Source: a virus (taxonomy: Duplodnaviria; Heunggongvirae; Uroviricota; Caudoviricetes). Taken from it: 14,535 nt of DNA. The stretch covers positions 1 to 14,535 of the IMG/VR virus record IMGVR_UViG_2534681705_000018. One strand, given 5' to 3'. Shown here one piece after another: positions 816 through 14,535 of this stretch. The stretch's first letter is position 1. Every line of letters begins with the position of its first letter. Both the position numbers and the translations under genes were made by a program. Below the pieces are notes generated by a model that had not been told where the DNA came from, made no database searches, and was given only the letters and a program-made list of their open reading frames with translations.

Positions 816-2426
816 CTATTTAATTCCCTCATCATTGATAAGGTTGGACATCTCTTTCAACATGAGAGTCATTGAAGCTTTCGACCAATTTAGCGGAATG
901 ATAGGGCTTGGCGCTTCATGCAAAGTTCCCGACTTGTGGATATAGTTATAGCTTTCGGGAAGTGCCATTTCAGGTACACTCCTGCCATTTGCACCAATCA
1001 TATTCTCGCCTGTTATTTGGGCCAATGATCTATTCATAAATTGCACTGAGTCATTCAAATACTCTTCCTTTCTTGATTCTTTATAAACAATTGCTGCTGA
1101 TTTTGCATACCATGAGTCAAAAAACCATTCTGCTTCTGTTGATGGAATGAAGCTCTTTTCTCTTTTCGCATGTGAATTTTGATCGGTATCGGTTTTAATA
1201 TCATTGAACCAAAAATTTGCCGACTGATAATTATCCTTCTCGTATCTTTTTATACCATACGGACCTGCTAGTTTTTTAACTATTTTTAGAACCTGCTCTT
1301 TTCTTCTGGTGTTTATCTTTGCAAGATTTGCAGGATAAATAACATTAAGTAAAGCCGCATCGGCTTCTCTGTAATGTTTATCTTTTTCCAGATAACCTGG
1401 GGATTCTCCCCCTAAATCAAGCTGTAACGTTATTCTTTCATAACCTTTATCTATGAGGTGGTTCAACCTCGTTGTTGAAAGAGGTTCATCCAGTTCATTG
1501 GCTTTAGCTTCGCGTAGTAAATCAGAGACAAAAACAGAGTCTTTCTTCGAGAGTAAGTTCGACAAACGTTCCAGTCCAGAGGTCACCAGTGCAACGGAAG
1601 ATGTGTTTAATCGGGCATCTTCTTCCCATGCTCCGGAATCTTCCATAACATAGAAATTGGCTTTATCCAGATAAGCAATCAGCAGCGCAACCGATTTTAA
1701 TCGGTCACCTTTTTGCCAATCTTCAGCGTTAATTGTATCAGTGTCGATTGCTTGTATAAGGAGATCAAGATAAAGACCTAACGCATCATTTTGTTTATGG
1801 TTCCACAGCTGCGGCTTGCCTTCTTCCTGCACATCTGCCATCACGGGGGAGTTGCTGTCAAATCGGATATGCACAACATTCATTTGCCCGGGAACTCCAT
1901 CCAGTCGTTTGGGGTTGCTAATGACGTCCTGCATTCGCTTAATCTGGTCGGGCGTAGACATATAATCCCACAGGGTGAGCAGAACCTTTTTTGCGGCTAC
2001 ACTATTTCCCTGATCTGATACTAATGCCATATAGCCCCATAAACTATCCCTCAGCCAGACAGCATCATAGTGGGTTTCTGCCGCTGTTTTGTCATCTTCG
2101 AAAGTAGAAGCAAGAATAAACGTTCCCCAGGGTTTCTCCGTCAACGTTAACTTTCGTGTGTTTTCTGTTAATGTTAGCAATCCTTGAATTTCGTCTTTGG
2201 TATAGTGGCTCTTTATTTCATTTTGTAATTTGGCTGAGTGAATCAAAAGACGATAATTAGGATACTTATCTGGATTTAACGATAAATAACTTTTATCTGT
2301 TGCTGCCCCCGTGGAATTAAGAATGTTAAATACAGATTCACTCGTCACTTCTGCCCCTGTCGCCTGGCATGTGCCGCACGAAAATATACCAGCGAGCAGA
2401 AGAGTTAATGCAGATTTCCCTTTCAT
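816..2426 (-). CDS. secreted glycoside hydrolase family 15 (glucoamylase-like) enzyme with N-terminal signal peptide
   Basis: ORF 816..2468; likely start at MKGKSALTLLLAGIFSCGTCQATG (ATG 2426; alternative ATG 2438). Matches recalled GH15 signatures: VWLRDSLWG (WxRDS), GKPQLWNHKQNDALG (GxPQ...D.AL) and SGAWEED (general-acid WEE). AT-rich gene unlike the rest of the window. Confidence 0.7.
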   Translation of the reverse strand: MKGKSALTLLLAGIFSCGTCQATGAEVTSESVFNILNSTGAATDKSYLSLNPDKYPNYRLLIHSAKLQNEIKSHYTKDEIQGLLTLTENTRKLTLTEKPWGTFILASTFEDDKTAAETHYDAVWLRDSLWGYMALVSDQGNSVAAKKVLLTLWDYMSTPDQIKRMQDVISNPKRLDGVPGQMNVVHIRFDSNSPVMADVQEEGKPQLWNHKQNDALGLYLDLLIQAIDTDTINAEDWQKGDRLKSVALLIAYLDKANFYVMEDSGAWEEDARLNTSSVALVTSGLERLSNLLSKKDSVFVSDLLREAKANELDEPLSTTRLNHLIDKGYERITLQLDLGGESPGYLEKDKHYREADAALLNVIYPANLAKINTRRKEQVLKIVKKLAGPYGIKRYEKDNYQSANFWFNDIKTDTDQNSHAKREKSFIPSTEAEWFFDSWYAKSAAIVYKESRKEEYLNDSVQFMNRSLAQITGENMIGANGRSVPEMALPESYNYIHKSGTLHEAPSPIIPLNWSKASMTLMLKEMSNLINDEGIK

Positions 2427-2734
2427 AAAATATTCCATCAATCGTTTGTTAAAAGCGTAGATAACCACTTATTTAACAACTTGAAAATAAGGTGTTTTAC
2501 CTGGGTTGTTACAAAAGGATTGCATTGCGTAAACGCTTTTTATTTACAACAAAATGGGGAAGTATTACGGCGATTGCGAAAAGTCTGAAGCGATTGAATT
2601 AAGATAATATAGAAAATCAGATACAGCAAAAATGGCAGATTGATCAGGTGAAGATAAATTGGAGCGGCGAAGGGAACAACACAACAAGCCACAAGACCAG
2701 TAATAAAGGCGCATTCGCGAGTTCTAAAATAAAT

Positions 2735-4053: not shown

Positions 4054-4725
4054 TCACCCTTCTTTTTCCAGTTGAGCCAGCCGCCCGGATATTTCTTCCA
4101 GTTTTTCCAGGGCTGGCTTGCAGGCCGCATCAATAACATCCCGGACCATTCCGGCAAGCTGCTCTTCTGCTGTCGGCGTTGTTACTTCCACACCCGATGG
4201 TTTCCCTCCCTTATCCCATACACCCAGCGGTACGAGGGCAACGTGATCGATAAGAAATGGCGTACCCTCAATGACAAAATTGTCCTCGCCCATTACATCA
4301 GGAACTTCTGCCCCACCGGACGCACCACAAAACACAACCGACGGGCTGGTGGATACCTCCCCCCGGGCTTTCTGGATGTAATCGATGATTTCCTGCCCGT
4401 AAATCCGGCATACGCCCCACACCTCGTCATCGCGAATATACGGCAACATAACGGTGCCAATAATGCGCGACCGTTCGCCCACGTCTTCAATGGTTTTGCC
4501 TTCGGGATGGTCGATAATGACGGGTACTCCGGCGCAACGTTCCAGGAACTGCGGATTGAGATAAGTTTGCGGTGAACGCCAGACAAATTCTTTTTCTTCG
4601 GCGCGGTAGGCCATTCCGGTTCCTGTGATACGCAGGTTAACCAGCCACATGTTGGAGAACTGATAAGGCGACGGTAGCTGACCGTCCCGAATCTGCTTCG
4701 CCGCCTCAATTTCTGTTAAAAGCAT
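4054..4725 (-). CDS. hypothetical 223-aa protein with coiled-coil C-terminus
   Basis: ORF-track ORF; same operon and strand as neighbours; no motif recognised. Confidence 0.55.
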   Translation of the reverse strand: MLLTEIEAAKQIRDGQLPSPYQFSNMWLVNLRITGTGMAYRAEEKEFVWRSPQTYLNPQFLERCAGVPVIIDHPEGKTIEDVGERSRIIGTVMLPYIRDDEVWGVCRIYGQEIIDYIQKARGEVSTSPSVVFCGASGGAEVPDVMGEDNFVIEGTPFLIDHVALVPLGVWDKGGKPSGVEVTTPTAEEQLAGMVRDVIDAACKPALEKLEEISGRLAQLEKEG

Positions 4726-5782: not shown

Positions 5783-6070
5783 TCACTGACTGCAATTTTT
5801 CGATCCAGGGTATTTCCTGAATGCCTTACCATTGGGCTGATGTAATCCCATCCCGGCATGTGCCCGGCTGATGGTTTCGCGCATCTCCCCGAAATTATCC
5901 TGCCGTGCTGGTGGGCGTGCTGCCTTGCGGATACATTCCGCGCGACGTTTTGCCGCCTGTTCCCGTGCCTTGTCATCATTCGCCAGCATGATGACCTCAG
6001 CCCACCGCGCCGCCGCTCTCCGGTACAGACCACGCGCTTCCAGTGCTTCCGCTTTGCTGTCGTGAATCAT
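5783..6070 (-). CDS. PerC/Pch-family transcriptional activator-like protein (95 aa)
   Basis: AEALEARGLYRRAAARWAEVIM matches the recalled PerC-family core (AEELE.KGLWRRAAARWLEVM); ATGA start/stop overlap with the upstream gene. Confidence 0.55.
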   Translation of the reverse strand: MIHDSKAEALEARGLYRRAAARWAEVIMLANDDKAREQAAKRRAECIRKAARPPARQDNFGEMRETISRAHAGMGLHQPNGKAFRKYPGSKNCSQ

Positions 6071-6609
6071 GCGCCTGTTTTCTCCCTGGCTGCCCGGCGC
6101 TGACGTTTGCGCTTCTCATTCAGCGCTACCAGCCGCGTTTCTGCGTCCTGTTGTTCCTGTGGTGTCACCTCGCCGCACGGCTGGCCTTTCAGGTCGTAGC
6201 GTACCCCACCAGCCATTAAGGCGCGGTAATAGCGCGGACACTGCGCATAAGATGCCAGCGTCGCACGTAATGCCCCTGGCCCGAATGCCAGCCCCCTGAC
6301 GGCGAGATCCTGCATCAGGTCGTCGAATATCCCCACCTTAAGCGGCTTCGGTGCTTCCCGGCTGAATAATTCAGGCCACAACTCAGTGAGGCGGTTAACG
6401 CGCCTGCGGTTTTTGCGCTGGCGCTTGGTCATATGCCGCCACGGTGTCGCCCCTGTGGGCTTCTGCTGCGCTTTCTGGTTACCGGGCATCACTTTATGCG
6501 CCGACGTGGTTTTATCCTGCTCCTGTGCCGCCTGCGTCGTTTTCTGCGGCGTGCCATAAATGCCTTTCGGTTTTCTGTTAATGGTCAGCTTAGTCATGCT
6601 TTGCCCCAT
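6067..6609 (-). CDS. ProQ/FinO-domain RNA-binding protein with a basic N-terminal extension
   Basis: LTELWPELFSREAPKPLKVGIFDDLMQDL ... YYRALMAGGVRYDLKGQPCGEVTPQEQQDAETRL parallels recalled ProQ N-terminal domain ([22 protein letters not shown] ... RVDLDGNPCGEL); likely true start ATG 6597. Confidence 0.65.
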   Translation of the reverse strand: MGQSMTKLTINRKPKGIYGTPQKTTQAAQEQDKTTSAHKVMPGNQKAQQKPTGATPWRHMTKRQRKNRRRVNRLTELWPELFSREAPKPLKVGIFDDLMQDLAVRGLAFGPGALRATLASYAQCPRYYRALMAGGVRYDLKGQPCGEVTPQEQQDAETRLVALNEKRKRQRRAAREKTGA

Positions 6610-6937
6610 CGTTTTTACTGATTATTTCATGCCCGGAACTTTCATCTACCGGATACCACGCAAATGATCCAGGTTCATCAGAAAGAATGAATTTTGTGTT
6701 TGGCAAATACATGCATTCGTAAAAACCATCTTCCTGATGATACGGTGCCATTCCATACTCACCAGTAAGAATCGGTAATATTTCAGAATAAATTTCTGAA
6801 TCACCAGAATAAAACACATCACAAATCGCCCATGCTGCAATCGGACTATACCAGTCGTTGCCATTATCATTCCTGAATTTTGCCCACCAACCCTGAACCG
6901 CTGGCGAAATATTTTTGGGTATAGCTTCAAGAAACAT
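6590..6937 (-). CDS. hypothetical 115-aa Trp/Tyr-rich protein, first gene of the ProQ/PerC operon
   Basis: ATG 6937 with strong AAGGGGG Shine-Dalgarno; 3' end overlaps ProQ-like start. Confidence 0.55.
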   Translation of the reverse strand: MFLEAIPKNISPAVQGWWAKFRNDNGNDWYSPIAAWAICDVFYSGDSEIYSEILPILTGEYGMAPYHQEDGFYECMYLPNTKFILSDEPGSFAWYPVDESSGHEIISKNDGAKHD

Positions 6938-6987
6938 ACAACCCCCTTTGCAACTCTATTTCTATAATTTCGTGATAAAAATTCCAA

Positions 6988-7290
6988 TTATTCACACTAT
7001 TCCATTTTGATTGTGAACAGTCGTGAATAGTTAGTGAACAGTTTTTTAATAACTGTTCACTATGTTTTTTAGTTTAAAATCATATGGTTATTTTGTTTCA
7101 GTGAACAGTTGAACAGTTACCCCCTATAGAATTTAATTTGCAGTGAAAATGATTCACTGTTACAAGTTACAATGCGTTTTAAAAGTTTTAGCCGAAACTG
7201 TTCACGGCGTTCATTTCGTCGATGAATCCAGTAATGACGCAGCTTTTAGAGGTGAACACTACTGTTCACCACTGTTCACCACTGTTCACT
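6988..7290. repeat. replication-origin-like iteron region: about 10 direct and inverted TGTTCAC(C) copies, an AT-rich spacer, and a perfect tandem ACTGTTCACC x3
   Basis: Direct copies at 7054, 7199, 7263, 7273, 7283; inverted at 7013, 7034, 7101, 7252; palindrome TAGTGAACAGTT/AACTGTTCACTA (7032-7062). TGTTCACC is the P4 alpha-protein type I iteron as I recall; location just 3' of the primase gene. Confidence 0.65.
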
Positions 7291-9058
7291 TTTCATGGAT
7301 TTTTGGCACAGCGGGTAACCATTCATTAGCACTGTCAGCCAGCTCCATGTTGTAGCGCATTCCGACATTGGTCTTTGCCTTCTTATACTCAGCCCCATAT
7401 TCTTTCATCACTTTTGGGAAATCTTTGCCAAAATTAGTTAGATTTAATGGCTTATCGAAACCATAAGCATCCATATATGCAAGATATGCATGGTAAAGAT
7501 AAATTCGAGGGGCTCTTGGATATATATTCAGGTTTCCCATGAACATTCCTACAGCTTCACCAAGTTCGACAATATGGTTACAAAAAGCATATAGCGGATC
7601 AGTATGGCGTTTTACTTCCATTGCTTCTTCACCATCACGTTGCTCGAGCAGTAATGTTCTTGCTTTTTCGGGATCTGAAAAATTTACCAACAGCCTACGG
7701 ACTATTACCGGAATTTCCGCTGCAATTTTTTTGGGTAAACATGTGTCCTTGTTTTCTTCCGCTATCGGATTATTGAACTGAAAAATAACCCTACGGCGTG
7801 AAATACCTCCCGCTCTTTCTGTAAAAACCATCGGTTTATTATTTGTTATCAAAACAACTGAGCGTAAGACAGTGGTGTATCTTTTTTCATATTTCGGGTT
7901 AATTTGCAGAGGATCCCCACCTGTTATAGCTTTAATACCATTACCTTCACCAAAATATTTAGGTTGGTCCGGTAAAATAATCAGACTTTTACCAACTAGT
8001 TGCTCACGTCCACCAGCATCATCTAACGCTTTCATATCACTGCCTGCGGTGTTCTGCTCACCCGCCAACATTCTGGCAATTTGAGTAAACATACTTTTAC
8101 CACTTCCACCTTCGCCAGTTGCTTCAATGAATAATTGCCAGTCGTAGCGATTAGCCAAAACCATAAACAGAGCAGCACATATCCGCTTCATCTTTGATGA
8201 ATCGTATCCTGCTGCATGTGACAGCCAACGATGAAAATGGGGCGCATGGTCATGAATATTTTCACCAGGCGCAGGTGGCGTATAATAAATTCCATTATGC
8301 GAAGTGATCCAGTGCTCTGGTGAATGAGGTAAAAATCTACCACTTGTTATGTCATAAACTCCATTTTCAAAAGGTATTATGGTGTCACTCTGTTCTCTCA
8401 TTACGGGTACAGATATTTTTAAAGCATCAACCGCATTACTAATTGCCCGCTTACTGAAATTTGTCTTGTTTTTTTCGTAAATTGATACCATTTTACGACT
8501 CAACTCCATATCAGATATTTTTTCCCACACTCCAGAACAGTATGCATAAGCAAAATTGTTACCAGGGTGAACAGCTATTTCCTCAAAGCATTCAGCCAAA
8601 AGTGAAGCTCGCTCGTTATCCGCCATTCTGGAAAGAGAGATTTTGTGTTTTTTCTCAGTCCTTCCTGACAGAATATCCCCGCGCTCTGCCTGTTCGCGGA
8701 TCCGTTGCAGGTAATCGCGCCAGTTCTCCGGTTCCCGGTCGGTGATGCCTTTGTATAATTTCGCCTCCTGTACGCCAGCCAGCGCCAGCTTTTCAGCGAT
8801 AGCATTGATCTGGATTGGTTCGATCTCCCCCGCGAGATAGACACGCGCAAAGCGGCGTTTCTCGTCAATAATGCGGATATTCGCCAGGTCTGCCAGTTGC
8901 TTTGGCCCCAGGTAAACAGGTGGTACGTTATCGCCGTGTTTTCGTCCTTCGCTTTCAATCCAGTGTTGAGCATGGGAGTAAGCGTCCGTCCCGGCAAAAA
9001 TGATTACCTCGGTGAATTTATCCTTCGGCTGATATTTTAAATTCGGTGCGTTTTTCAC
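7286..9058 (-). CDS. P4-family primase / D5-like SF3 helicase replication protein (590 aa)
   Basis: Walker A GEGGSGKS in mid-protein; overall organisation of phage/plasmid primase family; GTG start at 9058 overlaps upstream stop (GTGA). Confidence 0.8.
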   Translation of the reverse strand: MKNAPNLKYQPKDKFTEVIIFAGTDAYSHAQHWIESEGRKHGDNVPPVYLGPKQLADLANIRIIDEKRRFARVYLAGEIEPIQINAIAEKLALAGVQEAKLYKGITDREPENWRDYLQRIREQAERGDILSGRTEKKHKISLSRMADNERASLLAECFEEIAVHPGNNFAYAYCSGVWEKISDMELSRKMVSIYEKNKTNFSKRAISNAVDALKISVPVMREQSDTIIPFENGVYDITSGRFLPHSPEHWITSHNGIYYTPPAPGENIHDHAPHFHRWLSHAAGYDSSKMKRICAALFMVLANRYDWQLFIEATGEGGSGKSMFTQIARMLAGEQNTAGSDMKALDDAGGREQLVGKSLIILPDQPKYFGEGNGIKAITGGDPLQINPKYEKRYTTVLRSVVLITNNKPMVFTERAGGISRRRVIFQFNNPIAEENKDTCLPKKIAAEIPVIVRRLLVNFSDPEKARTLLLEQRDGEEAMEVKRHTDPLYAFCNHIVELGEAVGMFMGNLNIYPRAPRIYLYHAYLAYMDAYGFDKPLNLTNFGKDFPKVMKEYGAEYKKAKTNVGMRYNMELADSANEWLPAVPKIHEK

Positions 9059-9345
9059 TTCTTACCTCCCGCAACCAACATTGCCCGGATTTTTTTAATA
9101 TTCGTGGCTGCACGTCTCGCCACCGCCTGTTGTTTGTTTTCCACCAGAATAAAATCACGCTCAAACTGACGGCGCGGCATTACGCAGTCATATTCGTAAG
9201 CCTCACGGCGGTAGGTGATATTGCCTGGCGTAACGTGACGAATAACCACTCGTCCCCCACGTCTGGTGTCGCGGTAAATATCTCCGTGTCTGATTTCAGG
9301 CCGAGCGGGGCCGCTGGCAGTAAAGCCAGAATTTTTCTTTTTCAT
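9055..9345 (-). CDS. hypothetical 96-aa basic protein, coupled to the primase gene
   Basis: ATG 9345 with AGGAAA upstream; stop overlaps primase start. Confidence 0.5.
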   Translation of the reverse strand: MKKKNSGFTASGPARPEIRHGDIYRDTRRGGRVVIRHVTPGNITYRREAYEYDCVMPRRQFERDFILVENKQQAVARRAATNIKKIRAMLVAGGKK

Positions 9346-9550: not shown

Positions 9551-9908
9551 GATTCACCCCCTGAATAACCTGATAACCGCAACTGGTCAGCAATTCGATA
9601 AATTCCGGCAATGTGCCGAAACAGTAATCATCACGCAGACGTTCGCGGGATACTTCAACGCCGTTTTCGTAGTGACTCACCATGCGTCCGGTAAAATGCA
9701 GATCATCATCGTGATGGCACGTTAACGGCTTAATCAGTCGCGCACGTTCTGCCAGTTCCAGCAATGCTTCAACGCTTCCGGCAATTGCACCATCCGGCAG
9801 GTTGTAATTACGCACTATGCGCCCGTTCTCCACATGGACCAGTAGCTGCCCGGTAAATTTCTCGTCAAACTGAATGCGGTTAAGGTCGGTAAGTGACAGG
9901 TTAATCAT
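9543..9908 (-). CDS. 121-aa protein carrying two tandem copies of the same small domain
   Basis: FDEKFTGQLLVHVENGRIV and LHFTGRMVSHYENGVEV; ATG 9908 overlaps upstream stop. Confidence 0.55.
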   Translation of the reverse strand: MINLSLTDLNRIQFDEKFTGQLLVHVENGRIVRNYNLPDGAIAGSVEALLELAERARLIKPLTCHHDDDLHFTGRMVSHYENGVEVSRERLRDDYCFGTLPEFIELLTSCGYQVIQGVNHG

Positions 9909-10104
9909 GGCGTACCTCCTGACGAATACGGGCGGCGAATACCATCACGCAGCCATCAGGAGATTGCTGGCGTGCTTCCTGTTCGCTGGTGGCCTCGATG
10001 TGAATCACGCGCGGTTGTGCCGTGCTCAGAGCGATAAAACGCCAGATGTATTTATTCAGGTTGTGCGAGTCCCGCCCTTGCGGGTGTGTGGTATGATTTC
10101 TCAT
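9901..10104 (-). CDS. small 67-aa protein, first gene of the leftward operon; tentatively Icd/Kil-like
   Basis: ATG 10104 with GAGGT Shine-Dalgarno; IWRFIALSTAQ...VMVFAARIRQEV resembles my recollection of Icd-like proteins (unverified); in frame with the C-terminus of the 402-aa track ORF. Confidence 0.4.
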   Translation of the reverse strand: MRNHTTHPQGRDSHNLNKYIWRFIALSTAQPRVIHIEATSEQEARQQSPDGCVMVFAARIRQEVRHD

Positions 10105-10297
10105 AGCTACCTCGATAATCTTGCTATCGTTGGTGGTTAGAAGCTCTGCGAGTGGTAACGACACTTGCGGGGCTTTGCCTTTAAGGTGCAAGTCACCTTT
10201 GAGGGTTATGCTACTTTTAGGTGACTTGCACTTCAAGCCTTTTTTTATTTTTTTTTCTACGTATACTGAACGCCACCTAACAGTAAGGAGGCCAGTA
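10105..10297. promoter_or_regulatory. divergent promoter/operator region with 13-bp inverted repeat AGGTGCAAGTCACCT (10184-10198) / AGGTGACTTGCAC (10219-10231) and a T-rich tract (10241-10257)
   Basis: Read directly; lies between the leftward operon and a rightward gene with AAGGAGG Shine-Dalgarno; candidate -35/-10 (TTGAAG-N17-TAGCAT) on the minus strand overlaps the repeat. Confidence 0.55.
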
Positions 10298-10477
10298 ATG
10301 CCAACGGGTACAACCAACAACAAATCACAACAAAAAACGGCTAGAATCCCTCTAGAAGTTTTAAGCGAAATGAATTTGGTCAAAGAGGAAAACGAAACAG
10401 ACGCGCAGTTTATCGTTACAGCCATGCGTGGCGAGATCAAACGCCGCCAGCGCCGCAAGGCCAAAGAACAGGAGTAA
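10298..10477 (+). CDS. small 59-aa basic protein, possibly ribbon-helix-helix-like; candidate element repressor
   Basis: Near-consensus Shine-Dalgarno AAGGAGG 6 nt before ATG 10298; strand-helix-helix pattern (ARIPLEV / LSEMNLVKEEN / AQFIVTAMRGEIKRR); only clear plus-strand gene in the element. Confidence 0.5.
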   Translation: MPTGTTNNKSQQKTARIPLEVLSEMNLVKEENETDAQFIVTAMRGEIKRRQRRKAKEQE

Positions 10478-10534
10478 CCATCACCAGCGCCGTGGTGTGA
10501 GGAACTACGGTGCATCGTTTTACAGGGCAGCGCC

Positions 10535-10714
10535 ATGACCAACAAAGAATCAACCAAAACACCATCACCAACTCGTAAGAGACGACGCAAAAATATAGCG
10601 CATGAACATGAATCAGAAAGATTCGCACCTTGTTCGTTTGCTCTTGAGAAATTCCTTAAAGAGCACAGGAAAAAGCTCTCGTTGCAAACCTTGGAACGAA
10701 CCAAATCTGACTGA
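10535..10714 (+). CDS. possible 59-aa Lys/Arg-rich ORF downstream of the RHH-like gene
   Basis: ATG 10535, weak Shine-Dalgarno; followed by a plus-strand terminator; not in ORF track. Confidence 0.3.
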   Translation: MTNKESTKTPSPTRKRRRKNIAHEHESERFAPCSFALEKFLKEHRKKLSLQTLERTKSD

Positions 10715-11109
10715 TCACATTGCCCACCAGCCGCAAATGTGGCATTGTTGGTGATGCGTTCAAGTATGTAGCTTTTCCACTGGCGGCTCTCTGCGGTCGC
10801 CTTTGTTTTATCCAGAACGAAATCAGACATCAGATTGATCAGCACCTGGCGACCTGACAAAATCGCATCAGTCGCGCCACCAGCAAAATTTTTTGCTTTC
10901 CGGACAGCGTGGCCAACGATATTTTGCAGCAAAATATTCTGCATTTCTGGCGTGCTGTGGCGACGGTGATCAGCGCCTTCACATTGAACGAACTTGTCGC
11001 TAAAATTCACCCACATAGCAAACATCGCGGTGCTGTAGGTAATTCGTTCACAAAGGCGCTCCGGCAACGGGGCGCTTTCTCTTTTTGTAACGGTCAGAGC
11101 GTTACACAT
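10715..11109 (-). CDS. N-terminal part of the 402-aa track ORF (9901..11109); plausible gene of unknown function whose true 3' end is unresolved
   Basis: ATG 11109 overlaps the AntA stop (ATGTGTAA); first ~130 residues protein-like, but the middle of the 402-aa frame looks non-coding and is antisense to the plus-strand module. Confidence 0.3.
10782..10809 (+). terminator. candidate Rho-independent terminator for the rightward transcript
   Basis: GGCGGC-tctctgc-GGTCGCC stem-loop followed by TTTGTTTT. Confidence 0.4.
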
Positions 11110-12028: not shown

Positions 12029-12226
12029 TCAGGTAGCTGTTCCGCGTGATTCAGCAATACGCTGATTAATCCACTCGTCAATTTCACTCTCAACGAAAGC
12101 AATCGCTCGCGAGCCAATTTTAACTGATGCAGGAAATTTACCTTGCCCCATAAGGCGATAAATCCATGCCTTGCTATATCCAGTTCTACGCTGAACTTCC
12201 GTTAAACGAATAAGCGTATTTGACAT
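12029..12226 (-). CDS. alpA: AlpA/Vis-family phage transcriptional regulator or excisionase-like HTH protein (65 aa)
   Basis: IRLTEVQRRTGYSKAWIYRLMGQGKFPASVKIGSRAIAFVESEIDEWI is the typical AlpA-family winged HTH; GAGGT Shine-Dalgarno; family-level assignment only. Confidence 0.8.
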   Translation of the reverse strand: MSNTLIRLTEVQRRTGYSKAWIYRLMGQGKFPASVKIGSRAIAFVESEIDEWINQRIAESRGTAT

Positions 12227-12446: not shown

Positions 12447-13193
12447 TCATCGTTTGATAGGACAGGCGACAAGCTCAATAGATGCGGCCTGTCGGGAGGT
12501 AAAACCTCGTTTTTCAAGCTCAGTAGTAATCGCGCCCTGGTTTCCCCTGGTGGCGCGCTCATTTTCCGGATCGTAATTGGCCCACTCTCTGTTTCTAATC
12601 TCGATAGCCAGATACAATGGGTCATCATCTCTGTATTTATTTAATAGAATTGGACGTTCGCTTTCGAGTTTGCGGATTTGCTCTTTAAGTGAAGAAATTT
12701 CCGCAAGTAACACTTCAATATTCTGTTCATCATCCAGAAACTCATTATCAACCACATCAGAAGTTGGTAGAGTTATTTCACTTAATGGTAAAAATAAATC
12801 AATGCCTATTTTCTCTGCAAATTCTTTAAGTTCTGCACGACGAAACCCATGCTTATCAAAAAGGCTTGCCGACCATCTTACATCACAATTTTGAAAAGGT
12901 GCGAATAATGCTATAGGCACACTATTTCTTTCACGAATAACTTCCAGGAGGTCTGTTAAAGTAGGGGCACTATTATATTGATTGGAAAGATCGACATATG
13001 TTGATTCAATAGTACCGGCAATACCTTGCTTAACCCATTCAGGAAGTTCAATCGCACATTCTTTCAAGTAAAGAAAATCTGCAATCTGTGAATAACTAAC
13101 ATGCGGTTGATGTAATTGAATACGAGTTATCAACTCCCTCAGGCTAATAAACTCCCACTCCCTTGCTTTAAGCACTTCGGCAATATCAATCAT
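12447..13193 (-). CDS. hypothetical 248-aa protein between integrase and alpA, coiled-coil near C-terminus
   Basis: Track ORF 12447..13274 opens on GTG; ATG 13193 has GAGGTG Shine-Dalgarno 7 nt upstream; no motif recognised. Confidence 0.55.
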   Translation of the reverse strand: MIDIAEVLKAREWEFISLRELITRIQLHQPHVSYSQIADFLYLKECAIELPEWVKQGIAGTIESTYVDLSNQYNSAPTLTDLLEVIRERNSVPIALFAPFQNCDVRWSASLFDKHGFRRAELKEFAEKIGIDLFLPLSEITLPTSDVVDNEFLDDEQNIEVLLAEISSLKEQIRKLESERPILLNKYRDDDPLYLAIEIRNREWANYDPENERATRGNQGAITTELEKRGFTSRQAASIELVACPIKR

Positions 13194-13320
13194 ACGCACA
13201 CCTCGGCGTCCTCTGTAGTGGTGGCTGTGCCAGCCCGCAGAGGTGTACGGGTTTTCAGGAGCGACCCTAGACACAGCCTTTTCTTAATCGCTCAAAGTCT
13301 ACTACTGTATACTCAACCAG

Positions 13321-14535
13321 TCACCCGCATTTTCCGAACTCACCATGCACCACATTTCCGCCATGCTCGAGCGAATCCATATAGTCGGCATACCACTGGA
13401 GCATCTCCCGGCGACCATCCAGATATTGCGCATGGTTGTATGTGCCACGAATTGAGTTTTTATCGACGTGTGCGAGCTGTGTCTCTATCCACGCGGTGTT
13501 ATAGCCCTGCTCATGCAAAATGGTGCTCATGGTGTGCCGGAATCCATGACCAGTAACGCGCCCGGCATAGCCGATACGACGAATGAGCACATTCATCGCC
13601 ATTTCACTCATTGGCTTACTGTGGTGAATACGACCGGGGAAAATAAACTGATACTGGCCTGTCATGTTTTTTAACTGCTCCAGTATTTTTATCGCCTGTT
13701 CTGGTAATGGCACACAATGCGGACGGCGCATCTTCATTCGTTCTTTAGGCACTTCCCACAAACGATTATCAAAATCGATCTCCAGCCATTCTGCCTGCCG
13801 TAATTCCCCGGGTCTGACACCTGTCAGAATTAATAGCCGCATTGCCAGTTTGACGATCTGGCTTCCGGTGTACGTATTAAAAACGCGGAAAAATTCCGGC
13901 AGTTCGTCGGCTTTCAAATAGGCGTAATGCTCTTTTTTATGTGGAGCAAATGCGCTCACCAGGTCAGGGGCTGGATTATATTCGGCGCGTCCGGTGATGA
14001 TTGCGTACCGGAACACCTCGCCGCATCGCTGGCGAACCTTACGCAATTTTTCAGTCGCACCACGGTCATTAAGACGGGAAAGAACCGCCAGCAATTCCAT
14101 CGGCTTAATTTCTGCGATCGGCCTACCGCCAATGTACGGAAAAACATCTTTTTCAAACGTCTCGATCATTTCCTCGGCGTATGACGATGACCACCTGTCG
14201 ATCCGCTTTTCGTACCATTCGCGAGCAATACCCTCAAAAGTATTGCCAAATTTGCTCGCCTGTTCTCGCTTTTGGGCTTTTCTGGCCTCACTTGGATTTA
14301 TACCACCAGCAAGAAGCCTTTTAGCCTCATCCCTTGCCGCCCTGGCATCAGACAGAGACACATCAGGGTATACCCCCAACGACAACATTTTGGGCTTTCC
14401 TGCAAACCTGTAGCGCAGTCGCCACCCTTTCGAACCGTTCGGCTCAATGAGCAACGAAAGCCCGTTACCGTCATTGAGTGTATAAGCCTTTTCTTTCGGC
14501 TTCGCGCGCCTGATGGCAAGGTCTGAAAGCAGCAT
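13321..14535 (-). CDS. int: P4-type tyrosine integrase (site-specific recombinase), 404 aa, start at or just beyond the right edge
   Basis: N-terminal arm-binding-like region (LSDLAIRRAKPKEKAYTLNDGNGLSLLIEPNGSKGWRLRYRF); C-terminal catalytic boxes HGFRHT and RGTYNHAQY (tyrosine nucleophile). Confidence 0.9.
   Translation of the reverse strand: MLLSDLAIRRAKPKEKAYTLNDGNGLSLLIEPNGSKGWRLRYRFAGKPKMLSLGVYPDVSLSDARAARDEAKRLLAGGINPSEARKAQKREQASKFGNTFEGIAREWYEKRIDRWSSSYAEEMIETFEKDVFPYIGGRPIAEIKPMELLAVLSRLNDRGATEKLRKVRQRCGEVFRYAIITGRAEYNPAPDLVSAFAPHKKEHYAYLKADELPEFFRVFNTYTGSQIVKLAMRLLILTGVRPGELRQAEWLEIDFDNRLWEVPKERMKMRRPHCVPLPEQAIKILEQLKNMTGQYQFIFPGRIHHSKPMSEMAMNVLIRRIGYAGRVTGHGFRHTMSTILHEQGYNTAWIETQLAHVDKNSIRGTYNHAQYLDGRREMLQWYADYMDSLEHGGNVVHGEFGKCG

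Follow-up and report, generated by a model that had tools for sequence, protein, structure and literature searches.

The replication origins of the phage-inducible chromosomal islands (PICIs) of Escherichia coli are located immediately 3' of the replication gene, and consist of two sets of iterons around an AT-rich region (Fillol-Salom et al. 2018, PMC6092414). In the type element, EcCICFT073, a segment comprising rep and ori maintains a temperature-sensitive plasmid at the restrictive temperature (PMC6092414), and this maintenance is abolished or reduced when either ori or rep is deleted (PMC6092414). Experimental proof of autonomous replication of the pri-ori segment, and of induction and packaging by a helper phage, exists for EcCICFT073 only (PMC6092414). 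Four alleles of the Pri-Rep protein are distinguished among E. coli PICIs, and the protein has distant homology to the alpha protein of P4 (PMC6092414). The GenBank record of P4 itself lists sixteen "ori type 1 repeats", distributed over its ori and crr regions, which upon extraction read (C)TGTTCACC.

The locus described here is part of a window (the entire stretch of DNA analysed, 14,535 nucleotides) which spans an island from int to beyond the PerC and DUF2213 genes. The genes around the locus are all on the minus strand, in the order int, int-alpA RNA, AlpA, AntA, DUF4222, initiator, gap, hypothetical protein, ProQ, PerC. They encode a P4-type tyrosine integrase (13321-14535), the int-alpA RNA (13210-13277, minus strand; Rfam RF02996, 47 bits versus a gathering score of 35.8), AlpA (12029-12226), a DUF4222 protein (9055-9345), an initiator of 590 residues related to Pri-Rep and P4 alpha (7286-9058), a protein of 115 residues that is annotated as hypothetical in relatives and is the first one downstream of the proposed origin (6590-6937), and PerC (5783-6070); a ProQ/FinO protein and DUF2213-type morphogenesis genes are also present in the window. 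Judged from its predicted genes, the element has the layout of a Gram-negative PICI. A close relative is an island of E. coli ETEC1748 adjoining tRNA-Gly, in which the gap and the initiator gene are 99% identical. No matches to sid, psu, delta or epsilon were found in Pfam and PHROG scans of a subset of the ORFs. We consider it very likely that the element is an E. coli PICI integrated beside tRNA-Gly and that the 348-bp intergenic gap after the initiator gene (6938-7285, as delimited by the ORF boundaries) serves as its origin of vegetative replication, a reading based on repeat statistics, domain homologies, identity of the repeat word to that of P4, position, and conserved spacing.

The region carries a set of direct and inverted repeats. 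The stretch from 7013 to 7289 contains ACTGTTCAC eight times exactly and three times with a single mismatch, on either strand, which agrees well with the roughly ten TGTTCAC(C) copies announced in the original prediction; two further, degenerate copies are found at 6989-6995 and 7143-7149. The heptamer TGTTCAC occurs nine times in 6988-7290, where 0.04 occurrences are expected from the local base composition (Poisson P ~2e-21), versus only once in the other 14.2 kb, at position 8567 inside the initiator gene. When up to one mismatch is allowed, CTGTTCAC has 28 matches in the window, 11 of which lie within 7013-7289, versus 10.1 +/- 3.1 matches in dinucleotide shuffles of the window, and the observed count was equalled in 0 of 200 such shuffles. 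Since these counts exceed both the composition expectation and all of the shuffles, the repeats are real and well above chance. Their consensus is aACTGTTCAC. A full-text search of the literature for TGTTCACC returned unrelated primer sequences only.

The iterons are organized in a core module and additional copies. The core module (7013-7117) is defined by an orientation pattern and a spacing that are common to relatives, and contains, in the orientation of the gene, two direct copies before an AT-rich spacer (7109-7117 and 7101-7109), an inverted copy directly after it (7052-7060), and three direct distal copies (7034-7042, 7023-7031 with one mismatch, and 7013-7021). This core is distal to the gene. 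A lone exact copy of ACTGTTCAC is present on the plus strand at 7197-7205, followed by an additional block close to the stop codon of the initiator gene (7251-7289), which has one inverted copy (7251-7260, reading TGTTCACC on the minus strand) and three tandem copies of ACTGTTCAC with a period of 10 bp (7261-7269, 7271-7279 and 7281-7289). The tandem triplet had been described as perfect, which is correct for the 9-mer ACTGTTCAC but not for a 10-mer, of which there are two copies, ACTGTTCACC, the third being ACTGTTCACT and ending in T.

The AT-rich spacer (7061-7100) is presumed to be the DNA-unwinding element on the grounds of its composition, its stability, and a position as in EcCICFT073. 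Its 40 bp are roughly 80% A+T, and the predicted AT-rich character is borne out by the 82% A+T of 7063-7100. Of all 40-mers in the window, the spacer belongs to the 0.15% with the lowest stability, and the area 7046-7100 represents the third least stable 40-mer region. It is flanked by the iterons of 7013-7060 and 7101-7117, with more iterons continuing up to 7289. At the distal edge of the origin, TTATTCACA (6988-6996, plus strand) can be read as a degenerate iteron and equally fits the DnaA-box consensus TTWTNCACA. Such a match is also seen at the edge of the P4 crr and in one other relative (L040), with near-matches in CFT073 and in the Symbiopectobacterium locus, and is absent in most relatives; DnaA boxes are thus inconsistently present across relatives, and the one in the window is of uncertain relevance. 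In P4, a perfect TTATCCACA is located near position 4288, at the distal edge of crr. Neither GATC clusters nor IHF consensus sites were identified at the origin region.

EcCICFT073 is among the closest known systems. Its gene order (int, alpA, Icd-like, DUF4222, "DNA primase family protein", a gap of 288 bp, PerC) is the same as in the window, and its Pri-Rep protein is 55% identical to the window initiator over residues 1-581, including the N-terminal module. As in the window, the gap that follows the gene of EcCICFT073 on its 3' side holds the origin, in which blocks of iterons surround an AT-rich spacer, and the spacing of a core of six iterons is nearly identical. There are also several distinct differences. 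The iteron word is ACTGTTCAC in the window and TGTCTACC in EcCICFT073, and the C-terminal binding domain has diverged between the two proteins, in line with this word change. The core module is gene-distal in the window, whereas it is gene-proximal in EcCICFT073. Downstream of the origin, EcCICFT073 encodes an SSB and the window a ProQ/FinO protein. Finally, the integration sites differ: the ETEC1748 relative of the window is found at tRNA-Gly, while EcCICFT073 is located in the CFT073 chromosome beside roxA, near phoQ.

A broader comparison was made with relatives of the initiator at 59 loci in other genomes, of which the DNA after the gene was examined, and for ten of these an iteron consensus was derived. 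In all ten, between 5 and 14 iterons follow the initiator gene, and the iteron word differs with the protein. The word is TGTTCACC in P4, vB_KppS-Ant, Rahnella, Kluyvera and Enterobacter, TGTGCACC in Proteus, TGTACAC or TATACACC in Xenorhabdus, TGTCTACC in EcCICFT073 and E. ruysiae, and CTCTACC in Symbiopectobacterium. All words of the alpha/Pri-Rep family can be described as variants of TGTNNACC or CTCTACC with a fixed spacing, as was observed at loci L003 (4833-5170), L035 (4391-4645) and L066 (12010-12240). The six-iteron core, with the pattern "+ + spacer - + + +", is shared by the window, EcCICFT073, vB_KppS-Ant (L002), Rahnella (L004) and Symbiopectobacterium (L035) with near-equal start-to-start spacing, i.e. 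8/47/20/11/10 nt in the window, 9/49/19/11/9 nt in EcCICFT073, 10/44/20/11/8 nt in vB_KppS-Ant, 8/45/20/11/10 nt in Rahnella and 9/47/22/11/10 nt in Symbiopectobacterium. The long gap in this pattern (~45-49 nt) corresponds to the AT-rich spacer. The order of the two origin halves relative to the gene in the window is unlike that in EcCICFT073, vB_KppS-Ant and Rahnella.

Four close E. coli relatives have invariant core iteron 7-mers, but as they are 93-99% identical across the gap they provide little information on the constraint of individual iterons. Most of the substitutions among them are found in the stop-proximal tandem block (7259-7280). In E. coli RM9088, three tandem TGAACAGT units are present versus two in the window at 7101-7117, i.e. 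an extra unit of 8 bp; even close relatives can thus differ in the number of their iterons.

The locus also resembles P4. The P4 type 1 word is identical to the window word, with a consensus of CTGTTCACC in ori and crr versus aACTGTTCAC in the window. Moreover, crr is located directly 3' of the alpha gene, the position that the iteron cluster has in the window, and the two initiators have a homologous SF3 helicase and C-terminal origin-binding domain. A part of the P4 crr repeat can be aligned to the window core module, and this shared arrangement comprises a degenerate TATTCAC copy. In contrast, the window has a single cluster whereas P4 has a separate ori and crr, 4.5 kb apart, and as P4 requires both of these the analogy is incomplete. 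The 120-bp direct duplication and the type 2 repeats of P4 are not found in the window, and, unlike in P4, no terminator is predicted between the gene and the repeats. Despite these differences, the shared word and position, and the architecture in common with the validated ori of EcCICFT073, give good support to the original assignment of the region as an iteron origin that directly follows the initiator gene and belongs to the P4 crr or PICI ori type.

The dependence of P4 on two elements raises the alternative that the window cluster is a crr-like cis-acting enhancer alone and that initiation takes place at a separate ori elsewhere in the island, the more so as it is crr, and not ori, that lies directly 3' of alpha and aligns with the core module. 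A second iteron cluster, equivalent to the P4 ori, was however absent from the 14.5-kb window, where the only other TGTTCAC copy is the lone one within the initiator gene. In EcCICFT073, the region tested 3' of rep served as ori together with rep (PMC6092414). We therefore regard a function as enhancer alone as unlikely.

Alternatively, the repeats could be operators and not an origin, and be used by the initiator, or by a different regulator of the island, to control transcription into the downstream ProQ, PerC and morphogenesis genes. The two genes on either side of the cluster indeed have the same direction, autoregulation is common in initiators that bind iterons, and the inverted iterons at 7032-7062 can pair into a hairpin of 12 bp, the sole substantial one in this region. 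This hairpin, with its T-run, is however on the non-coding strand, where it constitutes the sole terminator-like element of the gap, and promoter prediction for 6800-7450 gave nothing sigma-70-like on the coding (minus) strand. Scans of the gap also gave no terminator on the coding strand and no RNA family (Rfam). In addition, some 11 sites with a conserved spacing around an AT-rich spacer, as in a validated origin, represent the architecture of an origin, and a regulatory side role of the repeats would be compatible with origin function. An exclusively regulatory role thus appears very unlikely. We hold it hardly credible that the repeats are a decaying, non-functional relic or tandem repeats made by slippage, even though the stop-proximal block is variable in close relatives, one of which gained an 8-bp unit, and the island may be defective, as the initiator ORF is intact, the core 7-mers are invariant in four relatives, and the architecture is kept across genera at 34-62% protein identity with a word that co-varies with the binding domain.

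Two structural details of the original prediction could not be upheld for the proposed origin. Firstly, the three tandem copies had been thought to overlap the last codons of the initiator gene, thereby tying coding and origin function together. The stop codon is at 7286-7288 on the minus strand, and the gene is reached by the third tandem copy alone, with an overlap of 4 nt (the stop codon and one nucleotide of the final Lys codon), while the other two copies are wholly 3' of it. In relatives, the position of the first iteron ranges from overlap with the stop codon to ~45 nt past it. The finding that the stop-proximal block carries most of the substitutions likewise argues against coding-origin coupling at the stop. 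Secondly, a 12-bp palindrome had been reported, whereas perfect palindromes in 6950-7320 do not exceed 8 bp; the longest is TTTTAAAA at 7177-7184, and the best 12-mers carry one mismatched pair, e.g. TTCGTCGATGAA at 7215-7226.

The initiator is named "DNA primase family protein" in its RefSeq relatives, and its Pfam matches are D5_N, DUF5906 (the SF3 helicase core) and Pox_D5. The D5_N and SF3 helicase core (PF08706, PF19263) covers residues 178-470 (7649-8527, minus strand). It is followed by a C-terminal winged-helix origin-binding domain (residues 486-582; 7313-7603, minus strand), identified by a phmmer match (E 1.9e-21) to PDB 1KA8, the origin-binding domain of P4 alpha. The protein is 45% identical to residues 327-769 of P4 alpha. 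It had been suggested that the initiator is shorter than P4 alpha and may lack its C-terminal iteron-binding domain. The difference in length is evident (590 versus 777 residues), but the match to 1KA8 contradicts the loss of this domain; the deficit is instead N-terminal, where Zn_Ribbon_Prim and Toprim_3, the Pfam matches of residues 1-326 of P4 alpha, are absent.

In place of the Zn-ribbon/Toprim primase of P4 alpha, the window initiator has an N-terminal module of ~125 residues (8684-9058, minus strand). No Pfam family was matched by residues 1-148 at E<=1, and profile comparison of the N-terminus with residues 1-326 of P4 alpha (hhalign) gave a probability of only 1.7%. The fold of the module is weakly Toprim-like, albeit without the canonical acidic motifs. 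According to the inferred placement, the positions of the Toprim Glu and DxD would be occupied by a conserved Ala-Gly and a variable Ala-Gly-x, respectively. Judged by canonical motifs, primase activity of the initiator is unlikely. The name used by NCBI most likely stems from TIGR01613 ("primase_Cterm"), a model that covers the helicase part and for which the initiator scores below the cut-off. Since a catalytic primase domain cannot be recognised, the initiator is poorly served by the name "DNA primase family protein", and the replicon cannot be claimed to be self-sufficient. The same module also occurs elsewhere in E. coli islands, fused to helicases of the AAA_25/RepA type and the DUF927 type, and it is invariably preceded by a DUF4222 gene (P0004, P0011, P0018; H52, H71). 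It looks like a shuffled, portable domain.

The initiator also resembles the Rep protein of the SaPIs in being a self-loading helicase of the SF3 type, with a distant match to the SaPI5 primase-helicase 7OLA (E 3e-13). This homology is remote and confined to the helicase core, the iterons are unrelated, and so is the host range. The similarity concerns organisation and does not imply membership.

Domain-wise comparison of the initiators suggests that iteron word and binding domain are linked. The E. ruysiae initiator, which is followed by TGTCTACC iterons, is 93% identical to that of the window in the N-terminal module but no more than 47% in the binding domain. Conversely, the P4-like alpha protein of Rahnella is 81% identical in the binding domain, does not share the N-terminal module, and has TGTTCAC iterons. 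Because identities are split by domain in these two proteins, origin specificity, as far as alignments can tell, travels with the C-terminal domain, and the window initiator may be a mosaic of a PICI-type N-terminal module with a binding domain and an origin that have the specificity of P4, the module perhaps being an adaptor; we put this forward tentatively, and consider it a possible but rather doubtful interpretation. Both the wing and the recognition helix of winged-helix proteins make contacts with DNA (PMC2777425). When the binding domains are aligned, a wing of the form [IM][RQ]xN pairs with TGTTCAC, Y[YS]YN with TGT(G/A)CAC and TATACAC, and the V/T-x-T-N type with ..CTACC words. The wing segment thus seems to track the central iteron bases, a pattern that is suggestive but no proof, given that the independent groups number only about six.

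For the proposed origin at 6938-7285, the following sequence of events can be envisaged. After induction, the C-terminal winged-helix domain of the initiator would bind the ~11 ACTGTTCAC(C) iterons, which are 8-11 bp apart in blocks on either side of the 40-bp AT-rich spacer. With a tandem spacing of 10-11 bp, consecutive sites would point to the same side of the helix, which fits cooperative loading, and the bound initiator would assemble into an SF3 hexameric helicase. This helicase would then melt and enter the DNA at the spacer (7061-7100), driving theta-type replication of the excised circle. Binding by the initiator, melting of the spacer and replication at this locus are all inferred from sequence, through homology to P4 alpha and to the Rep proteins of PICIs and SaPIs. 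As the initiator has no recognisable primase domain, priming is probably supplied either by DnaG of the host or by a putative activity of the N-terminal module.

Overall, we classify the locus as an ordinary PICI Pri-Rep/ori that belongs to the P4-alpha lineage and had not been described before. It adds an allelic variant to the known initiator-plus-iteron replicons of PICIs and P4 without changing a concept, and its value for annotation is that the origin can be placed precisely. It is apparently mildly novel in two respects, namely a P4-type iteron specificity in a PICI backbone, and a portable N-terminal module that does not seem to be a primase. If the mosaic interpretation is true, P4-type satellites and PICIs residing in the same cell could fire or compete for each other's origins, and the N-terminal module could be a portable adaptor that recruits the priming machinery of the host or helper, rather than a primase. 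A TGTNNACC word that varies with the wing at fixed spacing would provide a simple rule for predicting origin specificity, and also possible cross-talk between co-resident satellites.

Some other features of the island are of minor interest. The int-alpA RNA is just downstream of the integrase gene and overlaps the start of an ORF at 12447-13274. An ORF of 402 residues at 9901-11109 (minus strand) is probably spurious, and the annotation of its counterpart in the near-identical ETEC1748 island has a short Icd-like gene together with a YlcI/YnfO gene in the opposite orientation. In the left part of the window, a protein of 550 residues (816-2468, minus strand) has a marginal match to glycosyl hydrolase family 15 (22.4 bits versus a cut-off of 22). 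The ETEC1748 island has a lytic transglycosylase gene and a NUDIX gene here instead, and this dissimilarity of the left part suggests either variable cargo or an island boundary.
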